Sequence record: OQ031072
Direction: 5' to 3' (one strand)
Source of the DNA: Shigella phage SFPB
DNA length: 64,000 bases
The notes below the pieces were generated by a model. The model saw nothing but the letters and a program-made list of their open reading frames with translations. It had not been told where the DNA came from and made no database searches. This document shows positions 5,810 through 62,443 of the stretch, one piece after another. The translations under genes were made by a program, and so were the position numbers. Positions within the stretch are counted from its first letter, which is position 1, and the number at the start of each line of letters is the position of its first letter.

Positions 5810-7487
5810 ACAGAGAAAACTGAAAGATGCTGGAACATTTGTAGGTCACTGTGCATGTCCACGCCCTCAATGTTTATCTTCAGATGCAGGTTCTATATAT
5901 CGTCATGATGACGGTTCATATTCAATGACATGTTTCAGTTGTGGAAAAGGTTTTCCAGAGTGGGATTTTGATAAAGGGCAGATTGTGAGTACTCATACTT
6001 CAGGTTCAGAGAATAAAAACCGTACATTTCGTGGTATGGATTTAGATGATGTGAAAGAAAACCTAGAAGCAATGGATTTAAAAGACAGGAAGATTCCTGC
6101 AAAAGTCCTTGAGCGCCTTGGTATTAAAGTTGATATTGACGACAATGGTGACATTGATGCGCACTTCTATCCAACATACAAAAAAGATGAAGATGGTAAG
6201 TTGCAACATGTAGGTTATCGTGTTCGTCACAAATATCCAGATGATTATCACAAAGAGCACTTACGTGGGAAGTTGAAAGACTTTTCTGGTGGTGTCGGAG
6301 ATATCAAAGGTGAACTGGCTATGTTCGGTTCATGGATTGCTCCAGAAGGTGGTAACCGTCTTTTCATCTGGGAAGGTGAGATGGAATGTGCTACAGCAAT
6401 CTACATGACTTCTTTAGCAATTAAAGATAAGTCTAGACGTAAGAATTACTGCCACGTTTCTGTACCATCCGGTGCTAATGTTAAGTCTATCAAAGAGAAC
6501 TATCAGTATATTACTTCCTTTGATGAGATTTACCTATGCTTTGATAATGATGAAGCAGGGGCTAAAGCAACTAAGGAAGCTGCTGGTATCTTACCTATTG
6601 AAAAAGTAAGACTGTTCCAGTATCCTGAAGGTATTAAAGACCTTAGTGAGTGGTGGACTAAGTTCTTCAAAGACAAAGATACAGTCTTGGAAGGATTTAA
6701 ACAACGAATCTACAATGCACCTCGTTACTGCCCTGCTGGTATCAAGAACTTTGCAGATGGTTTCGATGCTATGAAGAATCGTGGTCAGATTCCTTTAATT
6801 CCTTTCCCAGATTCTTTCGGGGATTTGAATAAGTTGACTTATGGCGGGTATGGTTTAGGTGAGATTACAACCCTTGCTGCACCTTCATCTGTAGGTAAGT
6901 CTGCATATACTCGTGAAATGATTTACAAAGCATGGAAAGATACTGAGTACAACATCGGTGTAATTCCTGTAGAAGACACTTACGAAGAACTTATGGAAAT
7001 GCTCTGTGCAATCCATCTTAGTAAGCAGATTTCAGAGATTCCTTACGATGAGCGTAATTGGGATGAGATTAAGGTTGCACATGCTGAGTTGTCAAAAGGT
7101 CGTCGTATTCACATCGTAGACCACCAAGGGGCAATTGACCAAGATAACCTGCTGGAGTTTGTTGACTATCTGGTTAACAGCCTTGATTGTAAGATTATCA
7201 TTCTTGACCCTATTACATTGGCGCTGTCACGCTCTGATACAGATGAAGAAGAAGTTCTGTCTGAGTTACTTCGTCGCTGTAAGCGTTATCAGTATGCTCA
7301 GGTAAACGTGTGTCACGTTCGTAAGAGTGCAGGTGGTCAAAAGGCCAACTCTGAAGGTGGTGATATTTCTGAAGAAGATATCAAGGGTTCTGGTGCATAC
7401 TTCCAGATTTCCATGAACAACATTTTGCTTATGCGTAACAAGGTTGACCCAGACCCTGTTAAAAAGAACTTGACAAAATCAAGTTAA
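5802..7487 (+). CDS. DNA primase-helicase (T7 gp4-like), frame-disrupted near 3' end
   Basis: Zn-finger CxxC...CxxC, TOPRIM (EGEMECA, FDNDEAG), Walker A AAPSSVGKS, Walker B IIILDP; frame ends KKNLTKSS* while helicase C-terminus continues in -1 frame. Confidence 0.85.
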   Translation: MAKQRKLKDAGTFVGHCACPRPQCLSSDAGSIYRHDDGSYSMTCFSCGKGFPEWDFDKGQIVSTHTSGSENKNRTFRGMDLDDVKENLEAMDLKDRKIPAKVLERLGIKVDIDDNGDIDAHFYPTYKKDEDGKLQHVGYRVRHKYPDDYHKEHLRGKLKDFSGGVGDIKGELAMFGSWIAPEGGNRLFIWEGEMECATAIYMTSLAIKDKSRRKNYCHVSVPSGANVKSIKENYQYITSFDEIYLCFDNDEAGAKATKEAAGILPIEKVRLFQYPEGIKDLSEWWTKFFKDKDTVLEGFKQRIYNAPRYCPAGIKNFADGFDAMKNRGQIPLIPFPDSFGDLNKLTYGGYGLGEITTLAAPSSVGKSAYTREMIYKAWKDTEYNIGVIPVEDTYEELMEMLCAIHLSKQISEIPYDERNWDEIKVAHAELSKGRRIHIVDHQGAIDQDNLLEFVDYLVNSLDCKIIILDPITLALSRSDTDEEEVLSELLRRCKRYQYAQVNVCHVRKSAGGQKANSEGGDISEEDIKGSGAYFQISMNNILLMRNKVDPDPVKKNLTKSS

Positions 7488-7792
7488 CGAAATGTCGTCG
7501 TCATGGTAAATCAACTGGTATTGCTGGTCACACTTGGTACAATCCAGATACAGGCCGTCTTGTAAAGGCTGCTGGATGTGGTGTTGATATTGATGGTGCA
7601 GCAGAGAATATTCGTCAGCAGTTTGGTATTGGTGAGGCTGAAGACCATTATGATGACTCTATGCCACACTATGAAGATGTTGATTTTGACCGTGAATCTG
7701 GAGAGATTTACACACAAGAGCAACGTGAAAGCTCCACCATTCCACCTGTGATTAACGAGGATAATGATGACTGTCCGTTCGAAACTGATTGA
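7463..7792 (+). CDS. primase-helicase C-terminal segment (continuation in -1 frame)
   Basis: Open frame translating ...KLTKCRRHGKSTGIAGHTWYNPDTGRL..., resembling T7 gp4 C-terminus; no start codon of its own. Confidence 0.6.
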   Translation, partial: KELDKIKLTKCRRHGKSTGIAGHTWYNPDTGRLVKAAGCGVDIDGAAENIRQQFGIGEAEDHYDDSMPHYEDVDFDRESGEIYTQEQRESSTIPPVINEDNDDCPFETD

Positions 7793-8045
7793 TAGTTATC
7801 TGAAGGAGGGTTTTGAACCCTTCTATTCAGAAGAAAGTAGAAAAAAATTTGTAAAAGAGTGCTTGACTAAGATAGAGCAGTTCGGTAAAGTACTCATCAA
7901 CAAGGGACATGAAGTAAAGTTTGAGCACTTATCAAAAGATAATGTTGAGCAGTTTGCATTAGCGATTGATGGTTTATCTACAGTTTACATCTTTACCTTG
8001 ACTAATAAACATTTTGAATATGAAATATATCGGAGAGATTCATGA
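7764..8045 (+). CDS. hypothetical protein
   Basis: ORF track 93 aa. Confidence 0.35.
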   Translation: MMTVRSKLIDSYLKEGFEPFYSEESRKKFVKECLTKIEQFGKVLINKGHEVKFEHLSKDNVEQFALAIDGLSTVYIFTLTNKHFEYEIYRRDS

Positions 8046-8179
8046 AACATTCTAAAGCATTCGAGAAAGTATTTGGTGATTCCATGAAAGCAACTGCTGG
8101 TAAACCTGCTGAATACTATGTACAGAAGCGAGTTCGCATGGGTAAGACGGCTCGTAAAGCAGCTAAGAAATCTGCTTAA
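8042..8179 (+). CDS. small basic protein (45 aa)
   Basis: ATG 8042 preceded by GGAGAG; MKHSKAFEKVFGDSMKATAGKPAEYYVQKRVRMGKTARKAAKKSA; below track size cutoff. Confidence 0.3.
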   Translation: MKHSKAFEKVFGDSMKATAGKPAEYYVQKRVRMGKTARKAAKKSA

Positions 8180-8184
8180 AGTGT

Positions 8185-8264: not shown

Positions 8265-8672
8265 ATGTCTAAAGTTGTTAAAATGAAAGCTCCGGTAGAG
8301 AAGTACAATGGTCAAGAACGTGAGACTCTGCGTTACCTACTGAAAGATGTTTGGTTCTATTACCTGAACACTATTCCACGTCCTCAAAAGGGTAAATCTG
8401 TGGATAAGCATTTTCCGGGCAAAGATTGTAACTACAGCGTTTCAATTCTGGCAAAAGATGGTAACAAGCTCTTTAAAGAGTTCACCAAATCCAAGCGCAA
8501 TGCTGAAGGTTGGGATAAAGTTACTACAGAGGCTGTTGATGCAGATGACTTCGAAGAGAAGTTTGGTTGTGAGCCTCCGTTTGAAGCTGACACCTATCAC
8601 ATCCTGAAGGTTAGCCGTTCAGCAGCATATAAAGACGGTGCTGTGTGGTCAGCAAAACAGAGTTTCCTGTAA
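8265..8672 (+). CDS. SSB-like protein, N-terminal part (T7 gp2.5-like)
   Basis: ORF track 135 aa; sits in replication module; downstream ORF in -1 frame carries LVPY and acidic tail. Confidence 0.45.
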   Translation: MSKVVKMKAPVEKYNGQERETLRYLLKDVWFYYLNTIPRPQKGKSVDKHFPGKDCNYSVSILAKDGNKLFKEFTKSKRNAEGWDKVTTEAVDADDFEEKFGCEPPFEADTYHILKVSRSAAYKDGAVWSAKQSFL

Positions 8673-9124
8673 TGCTGGTTGAAGAAATCAACGGTAAGCG
8701 TGTTGCAGTTAAGCAGCCTATGAAGAAAATCAAGGCAGCAAAATCTGATAAGCACGATGATGATAAGACTTACGATGTAATTCATCCAGATATTGCAGTT
8801 GGTAACGGCTCATTTGGTAGTGTGATTCTGGCGACTCACTTCTACACATTTGAAGGTAACGTTCTGACCAAGCCAATTCAGGAACAATTTATCATTGATA
8901 CTCTGGTTCCTTACACTGGTGGTACTGGTGGTGCTACTGAGACTGAACTGGATGAAGATGAACTGGCAATGCTTGGTCTTGCAGGTGTTGAAGACAACGG
9001 TGAAATCACTGAAGAAGATGCAAAAGATTCTGGTGATGAAGGTAAAGGTGGTGATGACGATGACGACGACCTACCAAACCCAGATGATGACGACGAAGAT
9101 GATTTCGAAACTGACGACGAGTAA
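8645..9124 (+). CDS. acidic C-terminal protein; probable SSB C-terminal part
   Basis: C-terminus GGDDDDDDLPNPDDDDEDDFETDDE; LVPYTGGTGG resembles T7 gp2.5; internal ATG at 8672 overlaps upstream stop (TAATG). Confidence 0.45.
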   Translation: MVSKTEFPVMLVEEINGKRVAVKQPMKKIKAAKSDKHDDDKTYDVIHPDIAVGNGSFGSVILATHFYTFEGNVLTKPIQEQFIIDTLVPYTGGTGGATETELDEDELAMLGLAGVEDNGEITEEDAKDSGDEGKGGDDDDDDLPNPDDDDEDDFETDDE

Positions 9125-16495: not shown

Positions 16496-18637
16496 ATGGT
16501 TAAAGTACAAATTATTAAGAAAGACGGTTCACTGGAAAAGCCAAACGTAAATAAAATCGTCGAAGCAGTTACCAAGTCAGCTAATAGAGTTGGCTACAAA
16601 GAGTTACCACTAGAAGTTACCCATGCTCTTGAATCAGCCTTTATGAGACTGCTTGTCAGAGCAACTAATCAGAATGCTATGCTCATCTCTGTAGATGATG
16701 TTCACAGTATTGTAGAAGGGACTCTGGCAGAGGTAAACCATGAAATCTATGAGTCATATTCAACCTACAGAAACTATCGTAAAGAGGTTGCACAGAATTG
16801 GGATGAACTTTACCAGAAAACTAAAGACACACTCTTCTTAGGTGACCGTGAGAATGCTAACTTTGACAGTAGCTTAATCTCTACAAAAGGTTCAATCATC
16901 CGTGGATATTTGACAAAAGAAATCTTTAAGCAGTATCACTTGACACCAGAAGAAGCAAGTGCTATTGAAGATGGATTCATTTATATCCATGACTTAAGAG
17001 ACTTAATCTTCGGTGGTATTAACTGTTGCTTGTTTGACATGGGAAGCGTCTTGAAAGGTGGTTTTGAAATGTCAGGCATCGAATACTGTGAACCAAAGTC
17101 TGTACTTTCAGCTTTACAGGTTATTGGTGACGTTGTACTCTCAGCAACTGCACAGCAATTTGGTGGGTTTACTATCCCAGAGATTGACAAGGTTCTTGTG
17201 CCATATGCTAAGAAGTCTTTTGAGTATCATCTGGAGAAAGCAAAGCAGTATAATATCCCAAGTAAAGAAGTATACCACTACGCTAAAGAGCAACTTCAGA
17301 TTGAGCTAACCCAAGGCTTCCAATCTCTGGAAATGAAACTGAATACAGTTCCTTGCAGCCGTGGTGATTTTGCATTCACAACTTTAACGTTTGGTTTACT
17401 CGAACCAGATATGGCTAGTGAAGATAACCGCTTGCAATTTATGATTGCAAAGACTATTCTTGATGTGAGAATGAATGGTCAAGGCAAGTCTAAGAAGCCT
17501 GTTGTATTCCCTAAACTGGTTTACATTTATGATGAGACAAGGCACATGTTAGACCCTTGGCAGGGAACTCTTTATGACAAAGCTATTGAGTGCTGTTCTA
17601 AAGCTATGTATCCAGACTTCTTAAGTGTTTCTGGTCATGGTTCTGTTGCAGAAGCTTTTGAGCGTTCAGGTGCAGTCATCTCTCCAATGGGTTGTAGGGC
17701 TTTCTTATCACCATATTATGATGAAGATGGTAAAGAGTTCTACACAGGGCGAGCAAATATCGGTGCAGTATCTCTTAATCTGCCAATGATTTACAAGTAT
17801 TCTGAAGAGAATGGTTTAGACTTCTGGACAGAACTTGACAAATACCTTGAAATGATTCGAAGCTTCCATAAGAAGCGTTATGAGATGATTGCTAATATGC
17901 CAGCAAGCTCTAACCCTTTAGCTTTCACACAAGGTGGATTGTATAAAGGACATAAGAAGCCAACTGATAAGATTGGTTGGGATACTGTTAAGTCTTTTAC
18001 AGCATCTTTTGGCGTGACCGCATTAGATGAATTAACAGTGCTTGCTCAAGGTAGAAGATTGCATGAGTCTGATGGTGATATTGCAAGCAAGGTTTTAAGC
18101 TATCTGAATAGCAAGCTGGAGCAGTTTAAGCAGGAAGACGGCTTCCTGTATGCACTTTATGGTACACCTGCTGAGAGTCTTTGTGGTACGCAATTGAAGC
18201 AGTTTAGAAATATGTTCGGAGTTGTTAAAGGTGTTTCTGATAAAGAGTACTTTACAAACAGTTTCCACATGAATGTTGGTGCAGACATTACACCGTTTGA
18301 AAAGCAAGACTTAGAAGAACCTTTCTTCCACTCTTGTAATGGAGGCCATATCATCTACTCAAGGTTAGCCAATCCTGAGAACTTGCAAGCTATCAGGGCT
18401 TGTGTAACAAGGGGTATGGGTAAAGGATTCTATCAAGGTATCAACTTTGACTTAGCAATCTGTGAAAATTGTGGTCACAGACCTAACAAAGATGTTGAAC
18501 TATGCCCTAAGTGCAACTCCCATGATATCTCTGTGATTAATCGTGTGTGTGGTTATCTAGGTTGGACTAAGATTAAAGGTACTTCCAGAATGAACGATGC
18601 AAAAATTGCAGAAATCAAGGACAGAGTATGTATGTAA
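16496..18637 (+). CDS. nrdD: anaerobic ribonucleoside-triphosphate reductase (class III)
   Basis: ATG 16496 after AGGAG RBS; N-terminal ATP-cone; C-terminal Zn-ribbon CxxC...CxxC and glycyl-radical RVCGY motif. Confidence 0.9.
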   Translation: MVKVQIIKKDGSLEKPNVNKIVEAVTKSANRVGYKELPLEVTHALESAFMRLLVRATNQNAMLISVDDVHSIVEGTLAEVNHEIYESYSTYRNYRKEVAQNWDELYQKTKDTLFLGDRENANFDSSLISTKGSIIRGYLTKEIFKQYHLTPEEASAIEDGFIYIHDLRDLIFGGINCCLFDMGSVLKGGFEMSGIEYCEPKSVLSALQVIGDVVLSATAQQFGGFTIPEIDKVLVPYAKKSFEYHLEKAKQYNIPSKEVYHYAKEQLQIELTQGFQSLEMKLNTVPCSRGDFAFTTLTFGLLEPDMASEDNRLQFMIAKTILDVRMNGQGKSKKPVVFPKLVYIYDETRHMLDPWQGTLYDKAIECCSKAMYPDFLSVSGHGSVAEAFERSGAVISPMGCRAFLSPYYDEDGKEFYTGRANIGAVSLNLPMIYKYSEENGLDFWTELDKYLEMIRSFHKKRYEMIANMPASSNPLAFTQGGLYKGHKKPTDKIGWDTVKSFTASFGVTALDELTVLAQGRRLHESDGDIASKVLSYLNSKLEQFKQEDGFLYALYGTPAESLCGTQLKQFRNMFGVVKGVSDKEYFTNSFHMNVGADITPFEKQDLEEPFFHSCNGGHIIYSRLANPENLQAIRACVTRGMGKGFYQGINFDLAICENCGHRPNKDVELCPKCNSHDISVINRVCGYLGWTKIKGTSRMNDAKIAEIKDRVCM

Positions 18638-19083
18638 AGGAGCTTCTTTGCTACAATCCAGAAAATGGTGAAATAAGATGGAAGAGTGACGGCAGCCTTG
18701 CTGGAAGTAAAATTTCAGGAGGCTACATTCTCATAACACTTCCAGATGGTTCCAAAGAATATGCTCACAGACTGGCATTCTTACTTATGGGTGAAGAGAT
18801 ACCTGAGTTAGTAGACCACATCAATGGTATTAGAGATGATAACCGTTGGAGCAACTTAAGAAGCTCTAACAAGGTTGATAATGCTTGTAATGCTAAATTA
18901 AGAGATGACAATAAAACAGGGTATAAAGGTATTTCTTGGGACTCTTCGAGAAAGAGGTGGAGAGTTTCAATAACCTATAACAAAAGGACAGTTTCCAAGA
19001 GATTCAAAAACTTTGAAGATGCTGTAGAGTACATGCAAGACTTAAGATTGGAACTTCATTCACAGTACTGTAGGTTCAAATAA
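18628..19083 (+). CDS. HNH homing endonuclease with AP2-like DNA-binding domain
   Basis: VDHINGIRDDNRWSNLR HNH motif; GYKGISWDSSRKRWRVSI AP2-like; inserted between nrdD and nrdG. Confidence 0.65.
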   Translation: MYVKELLCYNPENGEIRWKSDGSLAGSKISGGYILITLPDGSKEYAHRLAFLLMGEEIPELVDHINGIRDDNRWSNLRSSNKVDNACNAKLRDDNKTGYKGISWDSSRKRWRVSITYNKRTVSKRFKNFEDAVEYMQDLRLELHSQYCRFK

Positions 19084-21011: not shown

Positions 21012-21036
21012 GGGAACTGTAAAAGGTTCCTTTTTA
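21012..21036 (+). terminator. rho-independent terminator
   Basis: GGGAAC...GTTCC hairpin + TTTTTATTTT. Confidence 0.6.
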
Positions 21037-33892: not shown

Positions 33893-33903
33893 AGGGCTTG
33901 ACA

Positions 33904-34883: not shown

Positions 34884-34889
34884 AAGTAC

Positions 34890-34918: not shown

Positions 34919-34969
34919 AAGCCCCAGATAAAGAGCTTTACCAACAATCCTAAACTGGAGATTCAAAAA

Positions 34970-35482: not shown

Positions 35483-35567
35483 AAGTACTTTACATGGGGG
35501 TTATCAAGTTGCTAAGATAGCCCCAGATAAAGAGCTTTACCAACAATCCTAAACTGGAGAATCTAAA

Positions 35568-35858: not shown

Positions 35859-35859
35859 A

Positions 35860-36186: not shown

Positions 36187-36269
36187 CTTGCAAAGGCAAA
36201 TCAAAACAAGTAAAGTACTCATCAACGGGGCAAGCAAGCCCCCAACAATCCTAAACTGGAGAATCTAAG

Positions 36270-36542
36270 ATGTATACAACTAATAATGGCAGAACTTTAA
36301 ATGTAACTTTAAAGCACTATGTAGATGGTGTATTAAACTTTGAAGACTTGCAAGCAGAACAGCACTTGTTAGCTTGGCAAGTAGCAGGATTACAAAAAAC
36401 CGCCACCGGATATGGGAAGAAAATCCCTACATCTTGGAAAGTTCGATACCTTGGAAAGTTACGCAGAATTTATCAAGATGTTTACAGTAATAGTGGTGTA
36501 AGTTACATTATTGTTAGTGGTAAAAAGTTACATCTTGCTTAA
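36270..36542 (+). CDS. hypothetical protein (cassette-driven)
   Basis: ORF track 90 aa. Confidence 0.5.
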   Translation: MYTTNNGRTLNVTLKHYVDGVLNFEDLQAEQHLLAWQVAGLQKTATGYGKKIPTSWKVRYLGKLRRIYQDVYSNSGVSYIIVSGKKLHLA

Positions 36543-36629
36543 TAAAGTGCTTTACATGGGGTTTATAAGTCGATAGTATAAGCCCCAGATAAAGAACTTT
36601 ATCACTAACCTAAACTGGAGATTCAAAAA

Positions 36630-37031
36630 ATGGCTACGAACAAAGATATAGCAGTACTGAAAGCACGTTTGACCGTTAACCGTATTAATGCTATCACATC
36701 AACCGCACCAGATGAGGTTTTACATAACATTATCGGTAAAATTCAGGGTGTAATTTTAGACGTTGAAAACATCAGAAATTCACTTGCAAATGTTGCACAG
36801 GGTGTTACACTTGACGGCGCACAATATGAAATGGCTGATATGCTTTCAAAGTCAAAAGTTCTTAATAAAGAATTAGACTTGAAAATGTTTCGATTTGCTG
36901 TTAAAGTGTGGTTATCTGTTGAGTTTGATGCTAACTTTGCAATTGCTGATTTCTTTGCAACGTGGTTACAACGTAATTTAGAAAAGCAAGATTTTCAAGA
37001 TATCTGCGATACAATTTACGCAGAACTTTAA
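36630..37031 (+). CDS. hypothetical protein (cassette-driven)
   Basis: ORF track 133 aa. Confidence 0.5.
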   Translation: MATNKDIAVLKARLTVNRINAITSTAPDEVLHNIIGKIQGVILDVENIRNSLANVAQGVTLDGAQYEMADMLSKSKVLNKELDLKMFRFAVKVWLSVEFDANFAIADFFATWLQRNLEKQDFQDICDTIYAEL

Positions 37032-37127
37032 AAAACGTTTGACACTAATTTTTAGATAGATTAAAGTACTCATCAACGGGGCAAGACAGAAGCCCCAACA
37101 ATCCTAAACTGGAGATTCAAAAATGAA

Positions 37128-37679
37128 ATGCTTTCACGGAACTACTCAAGAAAATTTTGTAAACCTGCTGAGTGGTGGAGAAAACCTTCAGGGGCTTGGA
37201 ATTGCTCAGACAGTGACGGGTGTTTTTATGTTTACCCTGTTAGTAAGTTCTATGATGTAGAGGATATGGACGCAGAACAAATCACTGAAGAGGGTATTAG
37301 AAACGCTCTGGATAGCGCAAGTATCACAGCGGCTTTCCAGATGAAATCACAAAAAATCGTTATCTTGGAACTTGATATTCCAGAAGATGAATTACAAGAT
37401 GACTGGAGCTGTGAGAACATGAGCGATGTTGCAAGCTTTACAGAATACTTTGATAGGGCTTGGATTAAAAAGATTTACACAACTGAATTTAATGCTATGT
37501 ATGCACCGTTTTTTGTACCTAACTTGAACAATAGAAATCTGGGCTATGTACCTGATGAATTACATAACATTGCTGTAATGATTCAACGTAGCGATGAGAT
37601 GAATAACGTGTTTTGTGATTTGTGCGACAACTTGCAATCTAACATAACAGAAAGCACTGTAAGCGACGTTTTAGCGTAA
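37128..37679 (+). CDS. hypothetical protein (cassette-driven)
   Basis: ORF track 183 aa; cassette-spaced ATG at 37123 is in another frame, start uncertain. Confidence 0.45.
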   Translation: MLSRNYSRKFCKPAEWWRKPSGAWNCSDSDGCFYVYPVSKFYDVEDMDAEQITEEGIRNALDSASITAAFQMKSQKIVILELDIPEDELQDDWSCENMSDVASFTEYFDRAWIKKIYTTEFNAMYAPFFVPNLNNRNLGYVPDELHNIAVMIQRSDEMNNVFCDLCDNLQSNITESTVSDVLA

Positions 37680-37742
37680 ACCATACAATCACACTAACAA
37701 CATTCAAAAGCCCTGTATAGGGGCTTACAAGGGGTTTAAATC

Positions 37743-37979
37743 ATGTTAACGACTATCTATCTCATGCTTGCCGTTTGCTCTGGTGCAAATAATTGTCATT
37801 ATGGCATTATGGAATCTTTCGAAGGCACTAAACAAAATGCAGTAGAGGCTTGCAATATTGCTAGACAGGACTACCCGAAATCGTCTATAATGGGCTGTTA
37901 TGTCTTACAAGGTGAAGACGAAAGCACAGAATACTACGAAAACGTTAATGAAGATGAGTTTTTAGAGATTTACAAATAA
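37743..37979 (+). CDS. small protein with N-terminal hydrophobic segment
   Basis: ORF track 78 aa; MLTTIYLMLAVCSG. Confidence 0.4.
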   Translation: MLTTIYLMLAVCSGANNCHYGIMESFEGTKQNAVEACNIARQDYPKSSIMGCYVLQGEDESTEYYENVNEDEFLEIYK

Positions 37980-38053
37980 AGTACTTTACATGGGGCTTTA
38001 AACCTTGCTACTATAAGCCCCAGATAAAGAGCTTTCCTAAACTGGAGATTCAA

Positions 38054-38203
38054 ATGATGACGCATACTATTGAGACAGTTTTTAACAACCCTGTATTCTC
38101 AGAGATGATTTTCTCATTTATCATGATGTTACTAGTAAAAATCATGAAAAAAGCAGAAAAACTACATTTAAAGAAAAAATCTATTGTAAACCGTATTAAG
38201 TAA
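38054..38203 (+). CDS. small membrane protein (49 aa, cassette-driven)
   Basis: Cassette + ATG; hydrophobic core IFSFIMMLLV; below cutoff. Confidence 0.3.
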   Translation: MMTHTIETVFNNPVFSEMIFSFIMMLLVKIMKKAEKLHLKKKSIVNRIK

Positions 38204-38250
38204 AGTTACAGTATCTATCAAGCCCACTTCCTAAACTGGAGAATCTGAAA

Positions 38251-38592
38251 ATGGCACATGTAACCATAATTACTGATAAAGAAAATTCATCTTGGTCTAC
38301 AAAAGTAAGTGATAAAGTGTCGCCTTTACAGTGCCTAAAATACTTTGAGCAATGGAATCGCGGCGAGGATGTTAGCCCGTTTCATGTGATGCGTATAGTT
38401 CACACTGACAAAGAAGGGAATAAAACAACCTTAAACAGTGAATACTATGCAACACGATTTGAAACAAAAGTTAACACAATGAAAATATTACGTGAATCCG
38501 GCTATGGTCACATTGCCGCTTTAATCTGGAGTGATTTACTCAAAGACCAAAAAATGACCTATGTCAAGACAGAAAAAATCTTTATAAGCTAA
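38251..38592 (+). CDS. hypothetical protein (cassette-driven)
   Basis: ORF track 113 aa. Confidence 0.5.
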   Translation: MAHVTIITDKENSSWSTKVSDKVSPLQCLKYFEQWNRGEDVSPFHVMRIVHTDKEGNKTTLNSEYYATRFETKVNTMKILRESGYGHIAALIWSDLLKDQKMTYVKTEKIFIS

Positions 38593-38787
38593 TCAATGAC
38601 TTACAAAATTCTTTGAAAAAACTGTTGACAATACCCCTTGACATTGATAGATTTGTTCGAGGGGTTTATCTAAAAGGGATTCACTTAAAAGATTCTTTAT
38701 AGATAAGCGTAAAAAGTACTTGCAAAGGTCTAATCATATCTATATAGTATCTTCAAAAGGCAACTTCCTAAACTGGAGAATCACTAA

Positions 38788-38928
38788 ATGTTAGATATCA
38801 TTAAAAACCCTATCCTTTGCGGTATGATTGTCTCTGTTGTGTTGCCATTAGCAATACTCATCATTGGTGAAATCTCAGATAAACTTTTTGATAAAAAACT
38901 ACTTGCAATACAGAATCAAAACAAGTAA
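38788..38928 (+). CDS. small membrane protein (46 aa, cassette-driven)
   Basis: Cassette + ATG; below cutoff. Confidence 0.3.
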   Translation: MLDIIKNPILCGMIVSVVLPLAILIIGEISDKLFDKKLLAIQNQNK

Positions 38929-38992
38929 AGTATTTATCAACGGGGAGGAGACTTCCCCACTAAAACAAAATTCCTAAACTGGAGAATCTAGA

Positions 38993-39520
38993 ATGAATAA
39001 GTTCCAAGCAATTAATCATATCCGTTCCAATGCAGTAATGAGCAAGCCAGTAAAAGACACCTTCGAATTTCGCTGTAATGACAAGTTGTTTGCAGTCATT
39101 ACGAAAGGGGAAGATAAAAAGTATTATGTACATCGCCAAAACGTTAAGGCGGTAACAGCAGATAACTTTATGCAAGCTGTTGCAAAAATTCTACCGGATT
39201 TTATGGAACTGGTAGCAGAACTTTGTGAACACTGCATCAAGTCATCAAAGGCAGAATTAAACCGCTTTAAAATGGCTTATGAGCGTTCTATCAAGTCTCA
39301 TAACATGTATATCATGCCATTGGCTTTTGGTACTCAGGCAATGGGAACAGGTTGTCATCCTTGCCACCTTTACGATGTAGAAAGCATTTACCTTAGTGAG
39401 ACAAAAGATATTGATTTTAGTTTACAGTTAGGACAAGCATTAAACGATATGATTAAATTACACGAAAAATCCGTAAAAGATATGCAAAAAGAGCTTGACG
39501 AAATCATCGTAAATCTATAA
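38993..39520 (+). CDS. hypothetical protein (cassette-driven)
   Basis: ORF track 175 aa. Confidence 0.5.
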   Translation: MNKFQAINHIRSNAVMSKPVKDTFEFRCNDKLFAVITKGEDKKYYVHRQNVKAVTADNFMQAVAKILPDFMELVAELCEHCIKSSKAELNRFKMAYERSIKSHNMYIMPLAFGTQAMGTGCHPCHLYDVESIYLSETKDIDFSLQLGQALNDMIKLHEKSVKDMQKELDEIIVNL

Positions 39521-39580
39521 AGTACTTATCAACGGGGAGGGAATGACCTTCCCCAACAATCCTAAACTGGAGACTAGAAA

Positions 39581-39844
39581 ATGAATAATCAAGAAATCAC
39601 TATCCTGTTACAAATTGGCACTGACAAAGAAGATATCCAACTTTGCAAACGTATTGAGAGTGATTGGTTCAACGGTGAAATCATCGCAGAATCTTATGAA
39701 GTAGTTGGATTCATGAATGGTGAAGTTGTAAGCCATTTTGGTTTAACTAAATCTGAAGCCGTTGCAAAGTATGACGTTTTATCTTGTGAGATTCTTACAA
39801 AATACAATGAAAAAAGACTTGCAACTTATGCAGCAATGAATTAA
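39581..39844 (+). CDS. hypothetical protein (cassette-driven)
   Basis: ORF track 87 aa. Confidence 0.5.
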   Translation: MNNQEITILLQIGTDKEDIQLCKRIESDWFNGEIIAESYEVVGFMNGEVVSHFGLTKSEAVAKYDVLSCEILTKYNEKRLATYAAMN

Positions 39845-39907
39845 TATTACTTTCAACGGGGAGGAGACTCCCCACTAAAACAAAATTCTAAACTGGAGAC
39901 TAGAAAG

Positions 39908-40084
39908 ATGAATTTTGAACAGCGTATGATTAGTAAATTTGGTGCTAAACGTTGGGAAGAGATGAAAAAAGAGCACGAAGAAAGAAAAAATGAAGAAACG
40001 GTAGTTATCACTGGTGTAGACTTACTAAATCACTCAGTTACTAACTATATCTTATCTGGTAACTCTTATAAGAAAGTTATCTAA
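39908..40084 (+). CDS. hypothetical small protein (58 aa, cassette-driven)
   Basis: Cassette + ATG; below cutoff. Confidence 0.3.
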   Translation: MNFEQRMISKFGAKRWEEMKKEHEERKNEETVVITGVDLLNHSVTNYILSGNSYKKVI

Positions 40085-40156
40085 TAAGTGTTGACAAGGG
40101 GTGTAAAAGCCCCTACTATTTAGAACCTAAACAATCCTAAACTGGAGAATCTGAAA

Positions 40157-40408
40157 ATGGCTACTATCCGCGCAACTGTTAATAATTTTGGCTTCCACGT
40201 ATTAGATGTTAAATTCGATATGGTTGGAACTGCCGATGCTTTCGGCATGGTTGATATGTGTCTAAAAGCAACTATTCAGGACTACAATCAATCTGAGTGG
40301 TTCTGGAAAGAAGTAAAACAAGAAGTCTTAAAGGATGGCGTATCCTCTTACTATTGGGGTGATTCTCTTATCACGCTTTACTATGAAGTTGACGGCTTCA
40401 ATAACTAA
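40157..40408 (+). CDS. hypothetical protein (cassette-driven, last of array)
   Basis: ORF track 83 aa. Confidence 0.5.
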   Translation: MATIRATVNNFGFHVLDVKFDMVGTADAFGMVDMCLKATIQDYNQSEWFWKEVKQEVLKDGVSSYYWGDSLITLYYEVDGFNN

Positions 40409-40449
40409 CAAGACGCCGCAACGGGGCAAATAGCCCCAGACCCTATACA

Positions 40450-40472
40450 AGCCCCTTCAATGGGGCTTTTTG
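40450..40472 (+). terminator. rho-independent terminator
   Basis: AGCCCC-TTCAAT-GGGGCT + TTTTT. Confidence 0.7.
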
Positions 40473-42017
40473 ACGTCTATACAATCTCTTTCTAGACTCT
40501 TACCAGACATTTAGAATAATAACTCTATAGATTACTCTATAACCTCTTATCAAATCAACTAACTTTTCCCTTAAATATAAGCCCATAACCCGAAAGGGAA
40601 GGGCAATCCCTAAAACGCTCTATAACGCTCTATACGGGCTTATCATCTCATCTTAAGCAATCATATTAAACCATTCTTAAAAGCCCTTCATAGAGCTTTC
40701 TAGAGCCTTAAAAGAATCTTATAAGGATATAAGCTTTATTATCTCGTTAGTATCTTGTGAATGGTTAAACAGGGGCTTGATAATAGCTTTAAAGTATGTT
40801 ATGGAGACTAAAAAGAGCTTAAAAGTAACGTAAAAGATGCTTAAAAGTAACGTAAAAGTTAGCCCCCTTTACATTCTCTTAACAAAATCTTAACAAATGC
40901 AACATAGTTATGCTTATTAGAGACTTGTTAAGCCTCAGTTAAATCCTTGTTAGAGGTATGTTAAAAGCTTGTTAGACACTTTGAAGTCCCTGTATAAGCC
41001 CCTAGAAAGCCCTATAAAGAGCTATACAGGTATTTGGGGTGTAGTTACTAGGGAGAATCTTAGAAGAGGCTATACAGAGCTACAGAGAACTTTTAAGAGG
41101 GCTTTATAGAGAATCACTAAGAAGGGAAGGGAACTATAGACCAAGAGATAGTGACCATGTTAATAGCTTGTTAAAAAGGTTTAGAACTTGTTAGCATCTT
41201 GTTAATTATCTTAACAAAATAACTATTAAGATTTAACTATTTAGCAACTTATAAGCAACTTGTTAGATTCTTGTTAGTAATGTTACAGAATGGTTAAGTT
41301 CTTGTTAGTTCTGTTAAGGGATTGTTAAGAACTCTGAAGAGATGTTAAGAGCTTGAGAGAGTTGTTAAGAGATTGTTAATGATATTTTAAGATTTTGCAA
41401 AGGGGATGTTACAGGGCTGTTAAGGGCTACCAAGCAGATATACACCCATGAGGTAGATTCTACCGAATCCACTAGTAGATATTTTTAGATTCTCCAAAGA
41501 CCCTAAAAAGTAACCTACCTAGTCTATTTTATAAAAATTTTATAGAACTGAATAACTATCTATACACTATCTTATATAAAACAGGAATTAACAGGCTTAT
41601 AAGATACCTTGTTAGTACCGTGTTAGACCTTGTAGGATAAGCCTTTACAGGGAATACCTGTTTAGTGTTATATAACAGTCTATATAGAGGCTTAGTTGAC
41701 CCTAGTGAACCATCTATAGAGAGTACTCTCTGTGACATAGAGATTAAGATGGATATAGGGGCTTCTAAGGGGCTATGAAGAGACTAGGAAGGTGATTATA
41801 TAGGTTTGGAAGAGGGCTTGTTAGAGAGCTTTGTAGAGGGCTATTTAGAAGGGGCTATATAGTTTCACTAGATAGAGACTAAGAGGCTATATAGATACTA
41901 TATAATACTATATAGAGAGTATGCTTAGATAGGTTGTTTAGAAGGTCTAGATATTTTATCACATATCATGGTGACCCAAGATGAACGGAGTGAATCCAAA
42001 TTTTATAAAATAATAAA
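40473..42017. repeat. ORF-free repeat-dense region; candidate origin or terminus-associated region
   Basis: No credible ORF; many short repeats (CTTGTTAG/TTGTTAAGA family, GCTATA(T/C)AGAG family); bounded by convergent terminators. Confidence 0.5.
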
Positions 42018-42036
42018 AGCCCCAAAAGAGGGGCTG
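42018..42036 (-). terminator. hairpin terminator at end of minus-strand operon
   Basis: AGCCCC-AAAAGA-GGGGCT with A-run on plus side. Confidence 0.5.
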
Positions 42037-42044
42037 TAAAGTTC

Positions 42045-47356: not shown

Positions 47357-47827
47357 CTATTTTGGATAAACAGCGTCAAGGTAAATCTTGGCTTCCAAAC
47401 TACGTCTATTTTGTAGACCCTTGGAAGTTACTTTTTGACCATTCACTGTAATCTTGTTCCACCACTGCATAGCTTCTGCACAACCAACTTTATTACCAGC
47501 ATTGTGACGCTTGATAAAAGTTGAATCCTGCATAGCACCGATACCAATGTTGTAAGTCTCTACAACAAGTGCGTCAAATTCGTTCTGCGTAGTCGGAACC
47601 TTAATTGCTCTGTTTACTGCACCTACATAACTTTCAACATCTGCAAGGAGATATTGAACAGCTTGTTCAGCAGTAATCTTCATCCCCATTGTTACAGGTC
47701 TTCCGTTGATACGGATTGTTCCATAACCAATTGTAGGGATTCCAGCAGAGTCTTTATAGGCTTCTAAGCGAAGCCCTTCAAAGAACTTAATGGCTTCTAA
47801 GCCTTTACTTGAGAGTTGCATTATCAA
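47357..47827 (-). CDS. endolysin, GH24 lysozyme
   Basis: LEAYKDSAGIPTIGYGT matches GH24 catalytic motif. Confidence 0.85.
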   Translation of the reverse strand: MIMQLSSKGLEAIKFFEGLRLEAYKDSAGIPTIGYGTIRINGRPVTMGMKITAEQAVQYLLADVESYVGAVNRAIKVPTTQNEFDALVVETYNIGIGAMQDSTFIKRHNAGNKVGCAEAMQWWNKITVNGQKVTSKGLQNRRSLEAKIYLDAVYPK

Positions 47828-48456
47828 CCTCCTACTGCGTTAATAACCACCTTGGCAGATTGGGATGTGATTGAGCCACCTACACCAGTTACAACACAAG
47901 AGTAAGTACCTTCATCATCAGCTTTAGAAGTCGGTGTCTTTTCATATGTTGCAGATGTTGCTGAAGGGATATCTACATCATCTTTCTTCCACTGATAACC
48001 AGTTGCACCAGTGGCAACAACTGAAAGTGTAAGTGTTCCACCCTCGTTAACAGTTTGGTCAGTTGGCTGCTGTGTAATAACTGGAGGTGTGATTGCATCC
48101 TTCAACTTTGCATTAAGCATGGAGAAAGGTTTAACCCTTGCAAGCCATTCACAGTAAATAGTGTCAACATCTTTACCGTTGATGATTGCATACTGCAAAT
48201 CCATGAAGAAGTCAGCAGTTCTCATTTGAGCACCTACAGAGTATAGGAGTTCTTCAGAGAATGGAACTGTGTAGCTTGGGGTGTAGTTGAAATCGGTAAC
48301 CTCAGCAATGTCTGACTCAGGCCACGGAGAGCTATATGTCAGTGGTAGCACAGCTTCTTGATACGTTCTGAAGTCGTATCTCTTACCAGCTTTAACATTC
48401 GCAATAAAAACTTTTACGAACTCTTTAAAATCTGGATATGTTTTTGCTTTAATCAT
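47824..48456 (-). CDS. protein with C-terminal Ig-like domain
   Basis: C-terminus ...TLTLSVVATGATGYQWKKDDVDI...GTYSCVVT Ig-like; N-terminal domain paralogous to next ORF. Confidence 0.45.
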   Translation of the reverse strand: MIKAKTYPDFKEFVKVFIANVKAGKRYDFRTYQEAVLPLTYSSPWPESDIAEVTDFNYTPSYTVPFSEELLYSVGAQMRTADFFMDLQYAIINGKDVDTIYCEWLARVKPFSMLNAKLKDAITPPVITQQPTDQTVNEGGTLTLSVVATGATGYQWKKDDVDIPSATSATYEKTPTSKADDEGTYSCVVTGVGGSITSQSAKVVINAVGG

Positions 48457-57689: not shown

Positions 57690-57781
57690 GGAAGATTAAC
57701 CCTAAAGGTAAGGGAGCAGTTTGCTAAACTGCCAGTAACCGAGAAATCGGCGTACCAGTTCAAGTCTGGTATCTTCCTCCA
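57690..57781 (+). tRNA. tRNA-Ser (anticodon GCT), long variable arm
   Basis: Acceptor GGAAGAT/ATCTTCC; anticodon stem GCAGT/ACTGC, loop TTGCTAA; CCA. Confidence 0.6.
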
Positions 57782-58295: not shown

Positions 58296-59753
58296 TTGCA
58301 GAGGTGCTTAATGGACTTAAATGTTATTAAGCAGAAGCGAGTGGAAGATGTAAGGAAAGTCCTAGCAGGTGAGTTGGGGCTTTCTGAAGAAGTAAAAGAT
58401 ATTATCAAATCCTTTGGTAAAGACCCCTCTAAATTCCTTCCAACTCAAATTCTGACTTTATTAAGGTACACCCCAGACCAAGTAAGACTCATCTTTAAAT
58501 TGATGACTGACAAGAACTATGTAGCTCCACAGCCTGGCTCTCAAGAGGTATTCTTGAACACTAATGCTGACTTGGTACTATATGGTGGTGCTGCTGGTGC
58601 TGGTAAGACTGCTGCCCTATTAATGGACTCACTAAGGTTTATTGAAGACCCAAACTATAACGCTGTTTATTTCCGTCGAAATACAACACAGTTACAAGGT
58701 GGTTTGTGGCCTGCGGCTAAGAAGTTATTTGGTAAGTTTGGTGGAGTTCCACATGAACAGAAAATGACTATCACTTTCCCTTCTGGAGCAACTATCAAGT
58801 TTACTTATTTGGAACTTGAGAAACACTCAGAAGGTCACCAAGGTATCGAATACTCAGCTATTTATTTCGACGAAGGTACACACTTCTCGGCTTCACAGAT
58901 TTCATATCTTCAGACACGTTTACGTTCTGGTGCTGAAGGTGACTCATATATGAAAATCTCAATGAACCCAGATAGAGACCACTTTATTTATGATTGGGTA
59001 GAACCTTTCCTAGATGATGCTGGATATCCAGACCCAGAGAAGTGCGGTAGGATTCGTTGGTATGTTATGAATGATGGTGTCATGGTTTCTGATTGGGATA
59101 GAGATAAAATTCTTGAAATGTTCCCTCTTGAGATTCCTCAAACATATACCTTTATTTCCGGTACAATTGATGACAACCCTATTCTAGATTTCCTTGAACC
59201 TAAGTATCGTGGTAAATTAGAAAACAACACACCAGTTAACGTTGCACGTTTACGTTTTGGTAACTGGAAAGCTCGTGCTGAAGGTTCAAACTATTGGCAA
59301 AGACAATGGTGTGAAATTGTTGATAGTGTTCCAGCAGATGTATTTGACGTAAGAGCATGGGACTTAGCAGCAACATTACCTTCTGAGGTTAACCCTAACC
59401 CTGACTGGACAGCAGGTGTTAAAATGGGTAAATCTAAAAAAGATGGTTGCTATTATGTGATTAACGTAGTAAGATTTAGAGATAGACCTTCTGGAGTTGA
59501 AACACAAATTAACCAAACTGCTGAAGGTGATGGTAAGCGCACAGGTATTTTTATCCCTCAAGACCCCGGCGCTGCTGGTAAATCCTACGCAACCTCCTTA
59601 TTAGAAAACTTGCTGAGAAAGGTTTCCGAGCAAGAGCTAAACCAACAAATAAAGATAAAGTCACCCGTTTTGCGGGTTTCTCTGCTGCTTCTGAGGCAGG
59701 ACTTGTCAAAATTGTTAGAGGCTCTTGGAATGAAGCATATTTCCAAGAACTAG
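58296..59753 (+). CDS. terminase large subunit (ATPase domain), frame-disrupted before nuclease domain
   Basis: Walker A LYGGAAGAGKTA; DPGAAGKSYA motif; frame ends in atypical sequence while terminase C-terminus continues in -1 frame. Confidence 0.8.
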   Translation: MQRCLMDLNVIKQKRVEDVRKVLAGELGLSEEVKDIIKSFGKDPSKFLPTQILTLLRYTPDQVRLIFKLMTDKNYVAPQPGSQEVFLNTNADLVLYGGAAGAGKTAALLMDSLRFIEDPNYNAVYFRRNTTQLQGGLWPAAKKLFGKFGGVPHEQKMTITFPSGATIKFTYLELEKHSEGHQGIEYSAIYFDEGTHFSASQISYLQTRLRSGAEGDSYMKISMNPDRDHFIYDWVEPFLDDAGYPDPEKCGRIRWYVMNDGVMVSDWDRDKILEMFPLEIPQTYTFISGTIDDNPILDFLEPKYRGKLENNTPVNVARLRFGNWKARAEGSNYWQRQWCEIVDSVPADVFDVRAWDLAATLPSEVNPNPDWTAGVKMGKSKKDGCYYVINVVRFRDRPSGVETQINQTAEGDGKRTGIFIPQDPGAAGKSYATSLLENLLRKVSEQELNQQIKIKSPVLRVSLLLLRQDLSKLLEALGMKHISKN

Positions 59754-59911
59754 AAGGTTTTTGTGGCGATGGTCGTACTAAGGATGACCAAGTGGATGCT
59801 ACCAGTGATGCTTTCAACAGTCTAAACGAAGTTAAACTATTCAAGCCACCTTCAATGGGTGCTCATACAGATATTATGAAGAGTAATCCATATCAGGGGC
59901 TAAGACGCTAA
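59582..59911 (+). CDS. terminase large subunit C-terminal segment (continuation in -1 frame)
   Basis: Translation ...RKLAEKGFRARAKPTNKDKVTRFAGFSAASEAGLVKIVRGSWNEAYFQELEGFCGDGRTKDDQVDATSDAFNSL... with terminase KxDDxVDA..AF motif. Confidence 0.65.
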   Translation: MLRNLLIRKLAEKGFRARAKPTNKDKVTRFAGFSAASEAGLVKIVRGSWNEAYFQELEGFCGDGRTKDDQVDATSDAFNSLNEVKLFKPPSMGAHTDIMKSNPYQGLRR

Positions 59912-61387: not shown

Positions 61388-61887
61388 TGGCAGAAGTTAT
61401 CTCTATTTCCAATGCTACGCGAGTGCATTCTTATAGAGGTGTCTTAATTATCACTGATGAATTAACTGTAGAGGCTGGCTCAAGGGTCAGCCTTTCAGGG
61501 TATGTTAGTGATGGTGGAACCTCTGACGTTTTCACTATTTGCAGGTTACTTGATGCTCCAATGAGCGGAAAACAGTTTATTTCAAACAATTGTAACGAAA
61601 TTGTTAAAATTCCATTTGACAGTTCATGCCTTTTGGGTGTAAAGTTATATAACTGTGAGAATAAACGTGTTAACGTTAATAGTGTTGAAGCTGCGTTCAT
61701 TACCATTGATACAGCATTTCAATCTCCAATGACAGTAAATAAAGAGTCTAACAGACTTGAGTACATTTTTTCACAAAATGATTACAAAGTACTTGTCAAA
61801 GGTAAAGTTTATGATATGATTGTAAATGTGGTAGATGAATCTGGTAACCATTCAACAATCCTTAAACAAAAAGTAAGGTTTAATTAA
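61387..61887 (+). CDS. hypothetical protein (head module)
   Basis: ORF track 166 aa. Confidence 0.4.
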   Translation: MAEVISISNATRVHSYRGVLIITDELTVEAGSRVSLSGYVSDGGTSDVFTICRLLDAPMSGKQFISNNCNEIVKIPFDSSCLLGVKLYNCENKRVNVNSVEAAFITIDTAFQSPMTVNKESNRLEYIFSQNDYKVLVKGKVYDMIVNVVDESGNHSTILKQKVRFN

Positions 61888-62219
61888 TGGGAACATTAAC
61901 GATTGATGGTAAGAATAAAATCCTAGCCACACTAACCCCGACAACTATTGTATTACACAATGTAGACCCAACGGCAGACCCTACAGCAAACAAGGTTACT
62001 CAGCCAGTGGCTATCTTCTTCTCAGAACCTAATAATGGATTAATTGCCTCAGAAGACACAGTTAATATTACTGTTCCGGCTTCTGCTACAGTTTCTCATT
62101 TTAGCTTATGGGATGACAACTCTAAGTGCGTGGCAACAGGTGCTCTAAGTAGCCCTCAGTTCTTTGCTGAAGAAGGAATTTATGTTATCTCTTCAGTATC
62201 CATTGACTTAAATAAATAG
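61887..62219 (+). CDS. hypothetical protein (head module)
   Basis: ORF track 110 aa. Confidence 0.4.
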   Translation: MGTLTIDGKNKILATLTPTTIVLHNVDPTADPTANKVTQPVAIFFSEPNNGLIASEDTVNITVPASATVSHFSLWDDNSKCVATGALSSPQFFAEEGIYVISSVSIDLNK

Positions 62220-62230
62220 GGTGAGTAAAA

Positions 62231-62443
62231 ATGAGTTCGAATATCTTCAGACTTGCTGACAGATTATTCAACCAACCTTTACTAGCTACAGAATCATTAG
62301 CCCACTCAGCAGCGACTTATGTTAATAACCGCTTGTTAGGTGAGGTACAAGCAGCAGTAAACTTCGATAAGCCAAAAGGTGAAGCAAGGAGTCTTTTAAA
62401 GTTAAAGAAGACATTGCTATCATCCCTATTATGGGTGGCCTAA
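62231..62443 (+). CDS. prohead protease N-terminal segment (upstream frame)
   Basis: MSSNIFRLADRLFNQPLLATE... resembles N-terminus of S49-type phage head proteases; main protease frame is -1 relative. Confidence 0.5.
   Translation: MSSNIFRLADRLFNQPLLATESLAHSAATYVNNRLLGEVQAAVNFDKPKGEARSLLKLKKTLLSSLLWVA

Follow-up and report, generated by a model that had tools for sequence, protein, structure and literature searches.

The 64,000-nucleotide stretch of Shigella phage SFPB DNA analyzed here (sequence record OQ031072; below, the window) contains single-base changes in short homopolymers that break the reading frames of conserved genes, and these breaks are very probably errors of the deposited or assembled sequence and no feature of the phage. 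The window belongs to a Mooglevirus (Ounavirinae, Felix-O1-like), with 96 to 97% identity to Shigella phages Sf17, Sf13, and ESh19. All six coding sites, together with the sites in tRNAs and noncoding DNA, are gains or losses of one base inside runs of two to five identical bases. We infer the technical origin, and the step responsible, from the assembled sequence rather than from reads.

Frame breaks in protein-coding genes

The initial annotation had reported five frame breaks, four needing an added base and one a removed base. All five were present, each was removed by a single-base homopolymer change in comparison with intact relatives, and the directions were correct, the HNH gene being the one from which a base must be removed. 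The placement of every site at A/T runs held for the primase/helicase, HNH, and protease genes, all of which are broken in A runs, but not for the terminase gene or a gene for a 286-amino-acid (aa) protein, in which the breaks lie in C runs.

In the DNA primase/helicase gene (5802 to 7792, plus strand), the A run at 7475 to 7478 has four bases in the window and five in all relatives. The open reading frame (ORF) as deposited reaches a stop at 7487 and encodes 561 aa, while the repaired gene encodes 663 aa, of which 557 of 558 upstream of the site and 105 of 105 downstream are identical to those of Sf17 (junction peptide, ...KKNLTKIKLTK...). The terminase large subunit gene (58311 to 59911, plus strand) has two C residues at 59596 to 59597, versus three in the relatives, and the break cuts the C-terminal nuclease domain. 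After repair the 533-aa product equals that of Sf17 throughout (428/428 upstream and 105/105 downstream), with the junction peptide ...SYATSLIRKLAEK.... Similarly, the gene for the head-maturation (prohead) protease of the S49 family (62231 to 63579, plus strand) has three A residues at 62398 to 62400, where the relatives have four, and its repaired 449-aa product matches that of Sf17 at 56 of 56 residues upstream and 386 of 392 downstream. Pfam domains were found in all three of these proteins, which carry out essential phage functions.

The 286-aa protein is encoded at 8265 to 9124 (plus strand), with two C residues at 8666 to 8667 instead of the three found in the relatives. Once repaired, it has an acidic C-terminal tail, spans the PHROG 3877 profile from position 1 to 285 of 285, and is identical to the Sf17 protein at all 152 residues downstream of the site. 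The label "SSB-like" given to it earlier found no support in Pfam, NCBIfam, or PDB sequence searches; the only match was PHROG 3877, whose function is not known.

The HNH homing endonuclease gene (55269 to 55683, plus strand), located between tRNA-Gly and tRNA-Thr, is the sole broken gene with a surplus base in the window, its A run at 55359 to 55362 having four bases versus three in BPS15Q2 and FelixO1. It is a mobile insertion with 98.8% nucleotide identity to a Felixounavirus-like source and is missing from Sf17, Sf13, and ESh19, so it was compared separately with BPS15Q2 and FelixO1. The repaired 137-aa product is identical to the BPS15Q2 HNH protein at 136 positions, including 105 of the 106 downstream of the break.

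A sixth, masked frameshift, missed by the initial annotation, was found in an early gene (37123 to 37679, plus strand) homologous to Sf17 gp031 (185 aa). Its conserved N terminus, MKCFHGTTQENFVNL, lies in frame 1 and the remainder in frame 3, and one added base gives a protein of 185 aa with 81% identity to that of Sf17. The shift lies at the A run at 37181 to 37184; the identity of the original base is inferred, since the relatives have GATAAACC at that place. An alternative ATG at 37128 leaves an ORF of 183 aa, which conceals the break in ORF lists.

After the one-base repair, the five reported proteins showed 98 to 100% identity to those of relatives downstream of the breaks, with no sign of decay. 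The actual phage would thus most likely encode intact proteins of 663, 286, 185, 137, 533, and 449 aa. A two-frame test of the window against each of Sf17, Sf13, and ESh19 recovered four of the five reported splits against every one of them, whereas the same test on these three genomes gave no genuine gene split, the sole matches being three unannotated ORFs on the noncoding strand. The five breaks therefore exceed what would be expected by chance.

The distribution of the alleles among other records was studied with 40-mers carrying either the window run or the one-base-corrected run. These were searched against 50,697 phage records, a collection without any entry at least 99% identical to the window. 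The window alleles at the five reported sites had no match in this collection, whereas the corrected alleles occurred at 98 positions across 31 records. Every relative checked carried the intact alleles (Sf17, Sf13, ESh19, Moogle, Michonne, and one metagenome contig), the allele table being unanimous across up to six relatives. An IMG/VR pattern scan that permitted both alleles returned only Sf13, Moogle, and Michonne, all intact; a metagenome scan returned one contig with the intact allele; and a scan of GTDB genomes found nothing. For their part, the truncated primase and truncated terminase products were absent from an index of 153 billion genes; an exact look-up of the portal protein of the window likewise had no hit.

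Indels outside protein genes and their sequence context

Comparable one-base losses were observed outside protein-coding sequence. tRNA-Lys(UUU) (53276 to 53350, plus strand) has lost one of three C residues at 53337 to 53338 in its T-stem (GGGTTCGAATCC-), where all relatives have CCC, and its Rfam tRNA score is 48.0 bits, versus 54.2 bits in Sf17. In tRNA-Gln(UUG) (56508 to 56583, plus strand), contraction of four G residues to three at 56510 to 56512, on the 5' side of the acceptor stem, lowers the score from 56.2 to 46.2 bits and leaves the model ends unmatched. tRNA-Ser(GCU) (57690 to 57781, plus strand) has three A residues instead of four in the D loop (57704 to 57706), with an unchanged score. 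The Shine-Dalgarno sequence of the DNA polymerase gene (3338 to 3339, minus strand) is changed from GAGGGAG to GAGGAG by a CCC-to-CC contraction on the plus strand; five relatives have CCC at this site, and the flanking sequence equals that of ESh19. The same contraction affects the 3' arm of a terminator stem at 21029 to 21030 (plus strand), where an intergenic hairpin precedes a T run (GGGAAC...GTTCCC TTTTT). Taken together, the sites lie in essential genes, a conserved gene of unknown function, an early gene, the HNH gene, the stems of two tRNAs, the terminator, and a ribosome-binding site, which points to an error process blind to function.

The contracted C runs at 21029 and 53337 both lie in hairpins, a possible link to compression-type errors.

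Several other candidates were discarded. A seemingly missing tRNA-Tyr was merely uncalled by ARAGORN, the region being equal to the annotated tRNA-Tyr of Sf13, and the low Rfam score of tRNA-Leu(UAG) reflects a natural variant that is the same in Sf13. Indels at 23591 and 45089 set the window apart from Sf17 and Sf13 but are identical in ESh19 and are thus natural mosaic differences. Tandem Repeats Finder gave no repeat that would account for the shortness of a short tail protein.

Private one-base indels in conserved context were counted in a four-genome alignment of the window, Sf17, Sf13, and ESh19. The window had 15 of them, versus 1, 1, and 2 in Sf17, Sf13, and ESh19, respectively, and the ratio of private indels to single-nucleotide polymorphisms was 15:429 in the window versus 4:670 in the other three genomes (Fisher P = 0.0006). 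Only about 5 to 6 of the approximately 15 clean private indels fall in coding sequence, although about 81% of the window is coding, so that some of the intergenic indels are probably natural and the number of errors is uncertain. The private nonsynonymous/synonymous ratio was 0.31 in the window, compared with 0.22 to 0.30 in the relatives; the substitutions in the window are under normal purifying selection, and the excess is limited to indels.

The contractions were also biased by context. Five of 129 CCC runs were contracted, compared with none of 145 GGG runs (P = 0.022), and among the CCC runs the contraction affected 4 of the 23 in a TCCCT context versus 1 of the 106 others (P = 0.0035). 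That deletions cluster at TCCCT, and on a single strand, suggests a technical cause. A base-calling or consensus step probably mismeasured the length of short homopolymers, mostly dropping one base, so that TCCCT was read as TCCT and runs of four to five A residues as one base shorter, and now and then adding one. The earlier proposal that the assembly carries homopolymer-length errors thus gains support from the private alleles, the intact relatives, the repaired proteins, the deletions in tRNAs, ribosome-binding site, and terminator, and the normal pattern of substitutions.

Homopolymer frameshifts in phage assemblies have been documented before, and the paper describing the HYPPA workflow reports frameshifted DNA polymerase genes (PMC10438801). 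As a positive control we used Citrobacter phage BSwM KMM4 (OP902293), a plaque-forming Mooglevirus whose public genome is a nanopore-only (R9.4.1) Flye assembly. There, the primase/helicase gene is split by an A5-to-A4 contraction 15 nucleotides upstream of the site in the window, and several further genes are split as well. As in the window, conserved genes are broken into neighboring ORFs by one-base contractions that occur in a single record and vanish against relatives. However, the errors in KMM4 lie mostly in runs of five to six A residues and six T residues, whereas those in the window affect very short runs, especially TCCCT contracted to TCCT on one strand. The signature of the window (runs of two to five bases) is therefore unlike that of the nanopore-only control (mainly five to six A or T residues), and it fits no platform tested.

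Biological explanations of the frame breaks

It is improbable that the frameshifts are all real, as they would be in a defective or degenerating genome or in a mutant-dominated stock complemented by a coinfecting wild type. Homing endonuclease genes often decay, the HNH and early-gene breaks lie in dispensable genes, and the protease break, at residue 56, could still allow a 382-aa product with the S49 domain to be made from an ATG at 62431. Against this, a virulent phage would have suffered hits in three or four essential genes at the same time, amino acid decay is absent downstream of all the breaks, those of the HNH and early genes included, none of the 31 related records has the window alleles, selection on substitutions is normal, and the bias toward TCCCT on a single strand has no known mutational basis. 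A mixed origin, in which the breaks in the four conserved or essential genes and the tRNA damage are errors while the HNH insertion, the early-gene deletion, or both are genuine inactivations, is appreciably more plausible, though still unlikely. The HNH change is the only insertion and affects a mobile, dispensable, recently acquired gene, and the early gene retains an ORF through its alternative ATG; hence, the breaks in these two genes could be real mutations as a reasonable minority possibility. Nevertheless, both are again changes of one base in A runs like the rest, and the near identity of the HNH protein to its intact homologue persists beyond the break. As for likeness to the decaying homing endonuclease genes of phage tRNA clusters, the HNH gene is a mobile insertion with a frameshift, but it lacks further decay, and its break has the same form as those in essential genes.

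Programmed recoding, by which ribosomal frameshifting or polymerase slippage would yield the full-length proteins, is scarcely credible, even though at four of the sites the base run would have to be read with what amounts to a -1 shift. Phage tail-chaperone genes provide known cases of programmed frameshifting, and in the lambda G/GT-type tail assembly chaperones, too, an overlapping ORF pair is linked where the frame changes by one base in a run of bases. Chaperone sites, however, are conserved, have slippery heptamers, and give two functional products, whereas the sequences at the window sites (ACA AAA TCA, TTT CCT GTA, CCT CCT TAT, and TTA AAG) do not fit the X XXY YYZ heptamer. All the relatives have a single uninterrupted ORF, one base longer; since they encode the same proteins in one frame, the sites are not conserved recoding signals. 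Transcriptional slippage needs roughly eight or more A/T bases, whereas the runs in the window have only two to four, and the same deletions also occur in tRNAs and noncoding DNA. It is likewise extremely doubtful that the run lengths are real and that this lineage makes complete primase/helicase, terminase, and protease through some unrecognized, context-specific recoding at TCCT and at short A runs. Errors in the sequence as deposited or assembled thus remain by far the preferred explanation of the breaks.

Consequences for the gene models

The warning that gene models in the window should be treated as provisional applies to about six genes and does not extend beyond these. Three other overlapping ORF pairs, 21050/21531, 35568/35803, and 42716/43161, had been proposed as further artifactual splits, but they are true conserved neighboring genes. 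The pair 21050/21531 aligns without gaps to three relatives, in which it is annotated as two genes with an 8-nucleotide overlap; likewise, the junction of 42716/43161 is free of gaps, with two genes overlapping by 14 nucleotides. The overlap in 35568/35803 arises because a TTG was called mechanically as a start; most likely, the second gene begins with the ATG at 35860, directly past the stop of the first. These three pairs should be left unrepaired.

The weight of the finding is practical, not biological, in that the gene models need repair. The uncorrected sequence would give about 12 fragment ORFs instead of six genes, two weakened tRNA calls, and shortened terminase, protease, and primase/helicase products, all of which would spread into databases and comparative analyses. 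A holder of the reads could use the one-strand clustering at TCCCT as a diagnostic. If, on the other hand, the alleles were true, recoding in essential phage genes would be implied, and the finding would then be of biological interest.

Interrupted genes in the SFPB window

The window showed 96 to 97% nucleotide identity across 64 kb to Shigella phages Sf17, Sf13, ESh19, and KPS64 and to Citrobacter phage KMM4, which are Felix-O1-like myoviruses of the genus Mooglevirus (Caudoviricetes, Ounavirinae). No record in the phage collection searched reached at least 99% identity to it.

In a tblastn comparison of the window with translated Sf17 and Sf13 ORFs of at least 60 amino acids, four genuine genes matched in two adjacent frames, and nucleotide alignments showed one base absent at each break. 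These were the primase/helicase gene (break at 7475-7478, A4 instead of A5; repaired span 5802..7792, with Pfam Toprim and DnaB_C), the gene for a hypothetical protein of 286 to 287 amino acids (8666-8667, C2 instead of C3; 8265..9124), the large terminase gene (59596-59597, C2 instead of C3; 58311..59911, Pfam Terminase_6N/6C), and the head-maturation protease gene (62398-62400, A3 instead of A4; 62231..63579, Pfam Peptidase_S49). An HNH endonuclease gene (55359-55362, A4 instead of A3; 55269..55683, Pfam HNH) carried one surplus A. The initial annotation had described five broken genes, four needing an added base and one a removal, and the alignments to relatives agreed with it; its placement of the breaks at A/T runs held for three sites, the other two being the C runs at 8666-8667 and 59596-59597. 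The label "SSB-like" that it gave to the hypothetical protein found no sequence match in Pfam, NCBIfam, or the PDB, only PHROG 3877, a family of unknown function; that identity is a guess based on an acidic tail and the neighborhood.

Single-base repair rendered proteins of 663, 286, 137, 533, and 449 amino acids for primase/helicase, the PHROG 3877 protein, HNH, terminase, and protease, respectively, the same lengths as in relatives. Past the break, identity to Sf17 was 105/105 for primase/helicase, 152/152 for the PHROG 3877 protein, 105/105 for terminase, and 386/392 for protease, and 105 of 106 HNH residues were those of Salmonella phage BPS15Q2. Behind a frameshift of any evolutionary age the downstream part would have drifted, and no drift was seen. 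At lower stringency the two-frame search uncovered a sixth break, in an early gene that is the homolog of Sf17 gp031 (repaired span 37123..37679). Its ATG at 37123 opens the conserved MKCFHGTTQENFVNL, and the frame switches at the A run 37181-37184; owing to a second ATG in the downstream frame, it appears as 37128..37679 in ORF lists. One added base restored its 185 amino acids.

By contrast, three overlapping ORF pairs that had been suspected of being artefactual splits turned out to be pairs of genes. The 21050/21531 pair aligned to Sf17, Sf13, and ESh19 over 787 nt with zero gaps, its counterpart being two annotated genes with an 8-nt overlap (ATGGCTAG). Similarly, the 42716/43161 junction was gap-free against Sf13 and ESh19, where two genes overlap by 14 nt. 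The apparent 35568/35803 overlap arises from calling the start at the first TTG past a stop; relatives annotate two genes there, and the second most likely starts at ATG 35860, which follows a GGGAAGG ribosome-binding site and lies just past the TAA of the first.

Run lengths across the window

To compare alleles, 38- to 40-nt segments centered on the five sites first reported were concatenated and searched with a 28-nt exact seed forced to span each run. The window alleles gave no match in 50,697 phage records, whereas the same query with the five runs corrected matched 98 places in 31 records. In pattern scans open to either allele, IMG/VR (Sf13, Moogle, and Michonne) and a single metagenome contig yielded only the intact one, and GTDB genomes gave no match. 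At every site, Sf17, Sf13, ESh19, Moogle, Michonne, and the contig were unanimous in differing from the window. A 153-billion-gene index had no entry for the truncated primase or the truncated terminase.

Private one-base indels were counted where the context was at least 90% conserved in a MAFFT alignment of four genomes. The window had 15 (11 deletions and 4 insertions), versus 1 in Sf17, 1 in Sf13, and 2 in ESh19; private substitutions numbered 429 versus 141, 227, and 302, respectively, so that the indel/substitution ratio was about 6 times that of the comparators (Fisher P = 0.0006). The non-synonymous/synonymous ratio of private substitutions was 0.31, versus 0.22 to 0.30 in the comparators. 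The abnormality is limited to run lengths, and the substitutions are ordinary. Among all pairs of Sf17, Sf13, and ESh19, the two-frame test returned no genuine gene split, the hits being limited to three non-coding-strand ORFs that are unannotated.

The same lesions were observed outside coding sequence, as one-base deletions that were clean and had perfectly conserved surroundings: C3 to C2 in the DNA polymerase gene's Shine-Dalgarno sequence (3338-3339), a terminator-like hairpin (21029-21030), and the T-stem of tRNA-Lys (53337-53338); G4 to G3 in the acceptor stem of tRNA-Gln (56510-56512); and A4 to A3 in the D loop of tRNA-Ser (57704-57706). With the Rfam tRNA model, tRNA-Lys scored 48.0 bits in the window versus 54.2 in Sf17, and tRNA-Gln 46.2 versus 56.2. 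Coding sequence held about one-third of the clean private indels, versus about 81% of the window. Several intergenic indels are probably natural, above all in the mosaic tRNA region, and the true error count, put at roughly 10 (one per 5 to 6 kb), is uncertain.

Within runs for which the three references agreed within 8 nt on either side, contraction affected 5 of 129 CCC runs and 0 of 145 GGG runs (P = 0.022). It occurred in 4 of 23 TCCCT contexts versus 1 of 106 other CCC contexts (P = 0.0035), and in none of 22 AGGGA, the reverse complement; a further TCCCT-to-TCCT event, at 3338, lay beyond this strict set. A runs were shortened at A4 and A5, and no T run was altered. A bias of this kind, bound to five bases of context on a single reported strand, argues for a technical process rather than mutation.

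Genome layout and insertions

Gene order is shared with the annotated relatives. The minus strand carries the DNA polymerase gene; a long block on the plus strand comprises dNMP kinase, primase/helicase, exonuclease, NrdAB, NrdDG, NAMPT, rIIA/B, and the small early genes; a block on the minus strand combines lysis genes (endolysin) with a tail protein gene and genes without known function; and a tRNA cluster and the terminase, portal, protease, and capsid genes complete the order. ARAGORN found 25 tRNAs and called no tRNA-Tyr at 52656-52743, a sequence that matches the annotated tRNA-Tyr(GTA) of Sf13 exactly, which brings the total to 26. The physical ends of Sf17 carry a 427-bp direct terminal repeat, whose equivalent occurs in a single pass mid-window (∼39474-39900); thus, the sequence is permuted relative to the virion ends, with the repeat collapsed.

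Upstream of small early genes (33659-40181), ten copies of the conserved module CAACAATCCTAAACTGGAGATTCAAAAATG (ribosome-binding site plus start codon) were found, and AAAGTACTTTACATGGGG and a GGGG...CCCC hairpin often lie ahead of it. These repeated intergenic cassettes of 50 to 110 nt, also present in Sf17, resemble reiterated units of early promoter, terminator, and translation start. A stretch of about 1.6 kb (40409-42044), at the meeting point of the plus-strand early genes and the minus-strand block, where GC skew switches sign, holds no ORF of at least 60 amino acids on the local coding strands, and the equivalent is unannotated in relatives too. An Ig-like-domain tail protein (47824-48456, minus strand) has 210 amino acids, versus 294 in Sf17, Sf13, and ESh19. 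Part of its gene matches two places in the relatives, which suggests two tandem diverged domains there and one here; the in-frame 252-nt difference may reflect natural variation in copy number or the collapse of a repeat.

The tRNA cluster holds two paralogous HNH genes (54168-54572 and 55269-55683), neither present in Sf17, Sf13, or ESh19. The latter, between tRNA-Gly and tRNA-Thr, is 98.8% identical in nucleotides to the HNH gene of BPS15Q2 (Felixounavirus), which suggests recent homing between genera. A 151-aa ORF (18628-19083), in an insertion of about 500 nt after nrdD that is missing from aligned relatives, has HNH-like (DHINGIRDDNRWSNLR) and AP2-like (GYKGISWDSSRKRWRV) motifs and is probably a further homing endonuclease.

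Origin of the breaks

Sequence error is very probably the cause of the breaks. It explains all that was observed: the single type of change, the private alleles, the perfect one-base repair, the lesions in essential genes and tRNA stems, the normal substitutions, and the context and strand bias. That all the breaks are real mutations is very unlikely, as terminase, primase/helicase, and protease would all have to be lost at once from a virulent phage, with downstream parts that show no decay. For the HNH and early genes alone genuine mutation is reasonable, both being dispensable, and a mixture in which one or both are mutated and the other breaks are errors has a modest chance of being correct. 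Programmed recoding at the break sites has practically no probability: every relative has the genes in a single frame, the sites lack slippery heptamers, the runs are very short, and the identical deletion type occurs in non-coding DNA.

That phage assemblies contain homopolymer frameshifts, which polishing corrects, is documented (PMC10438801). KMM4 is described as a plaque-forming Mooglevirus assembled from MinION R9.4.1 reads with Flye, in a methods text that, in the part available, mentions neither short-read data nor polishing (bioRxiv 10.1101/2023.06.01.543199). Its record (OP902293.1) has a primase/helicase gene broken by A5 to A4, only 15 nt upstream of the break in the window. A comparison of gene lengths and positions with the annotations of Sf17 and Sf13 suggests that its genes for DNA polymerase (three pieces), NrdD, exonuclease, dNMP kinase, and PRPP synthetase are split as well. 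Splits of this type therefore occur in what has been deposited for one viable relative. Clean private events in KMM4 fall mainly in A5-6 and T6 runs, unlike the C3 and A4 events of the window. Together with the UNVERIFIED flags that GenBank places on ESh19 and ESh21, the KMM4 splits indicate that several Mooglevirus records need care.

The homopolymer-error reading of the initial annotation was thus right in its core, its observation essentially so, and its three further examples wrong. If the breaks are artefactual, their biological interest is low, and the practical yield is the six repaired gene spans, 5802..7792, 8265..9124, 37123..37679, 55269..55683, 58311..59911, and 62231..63579.
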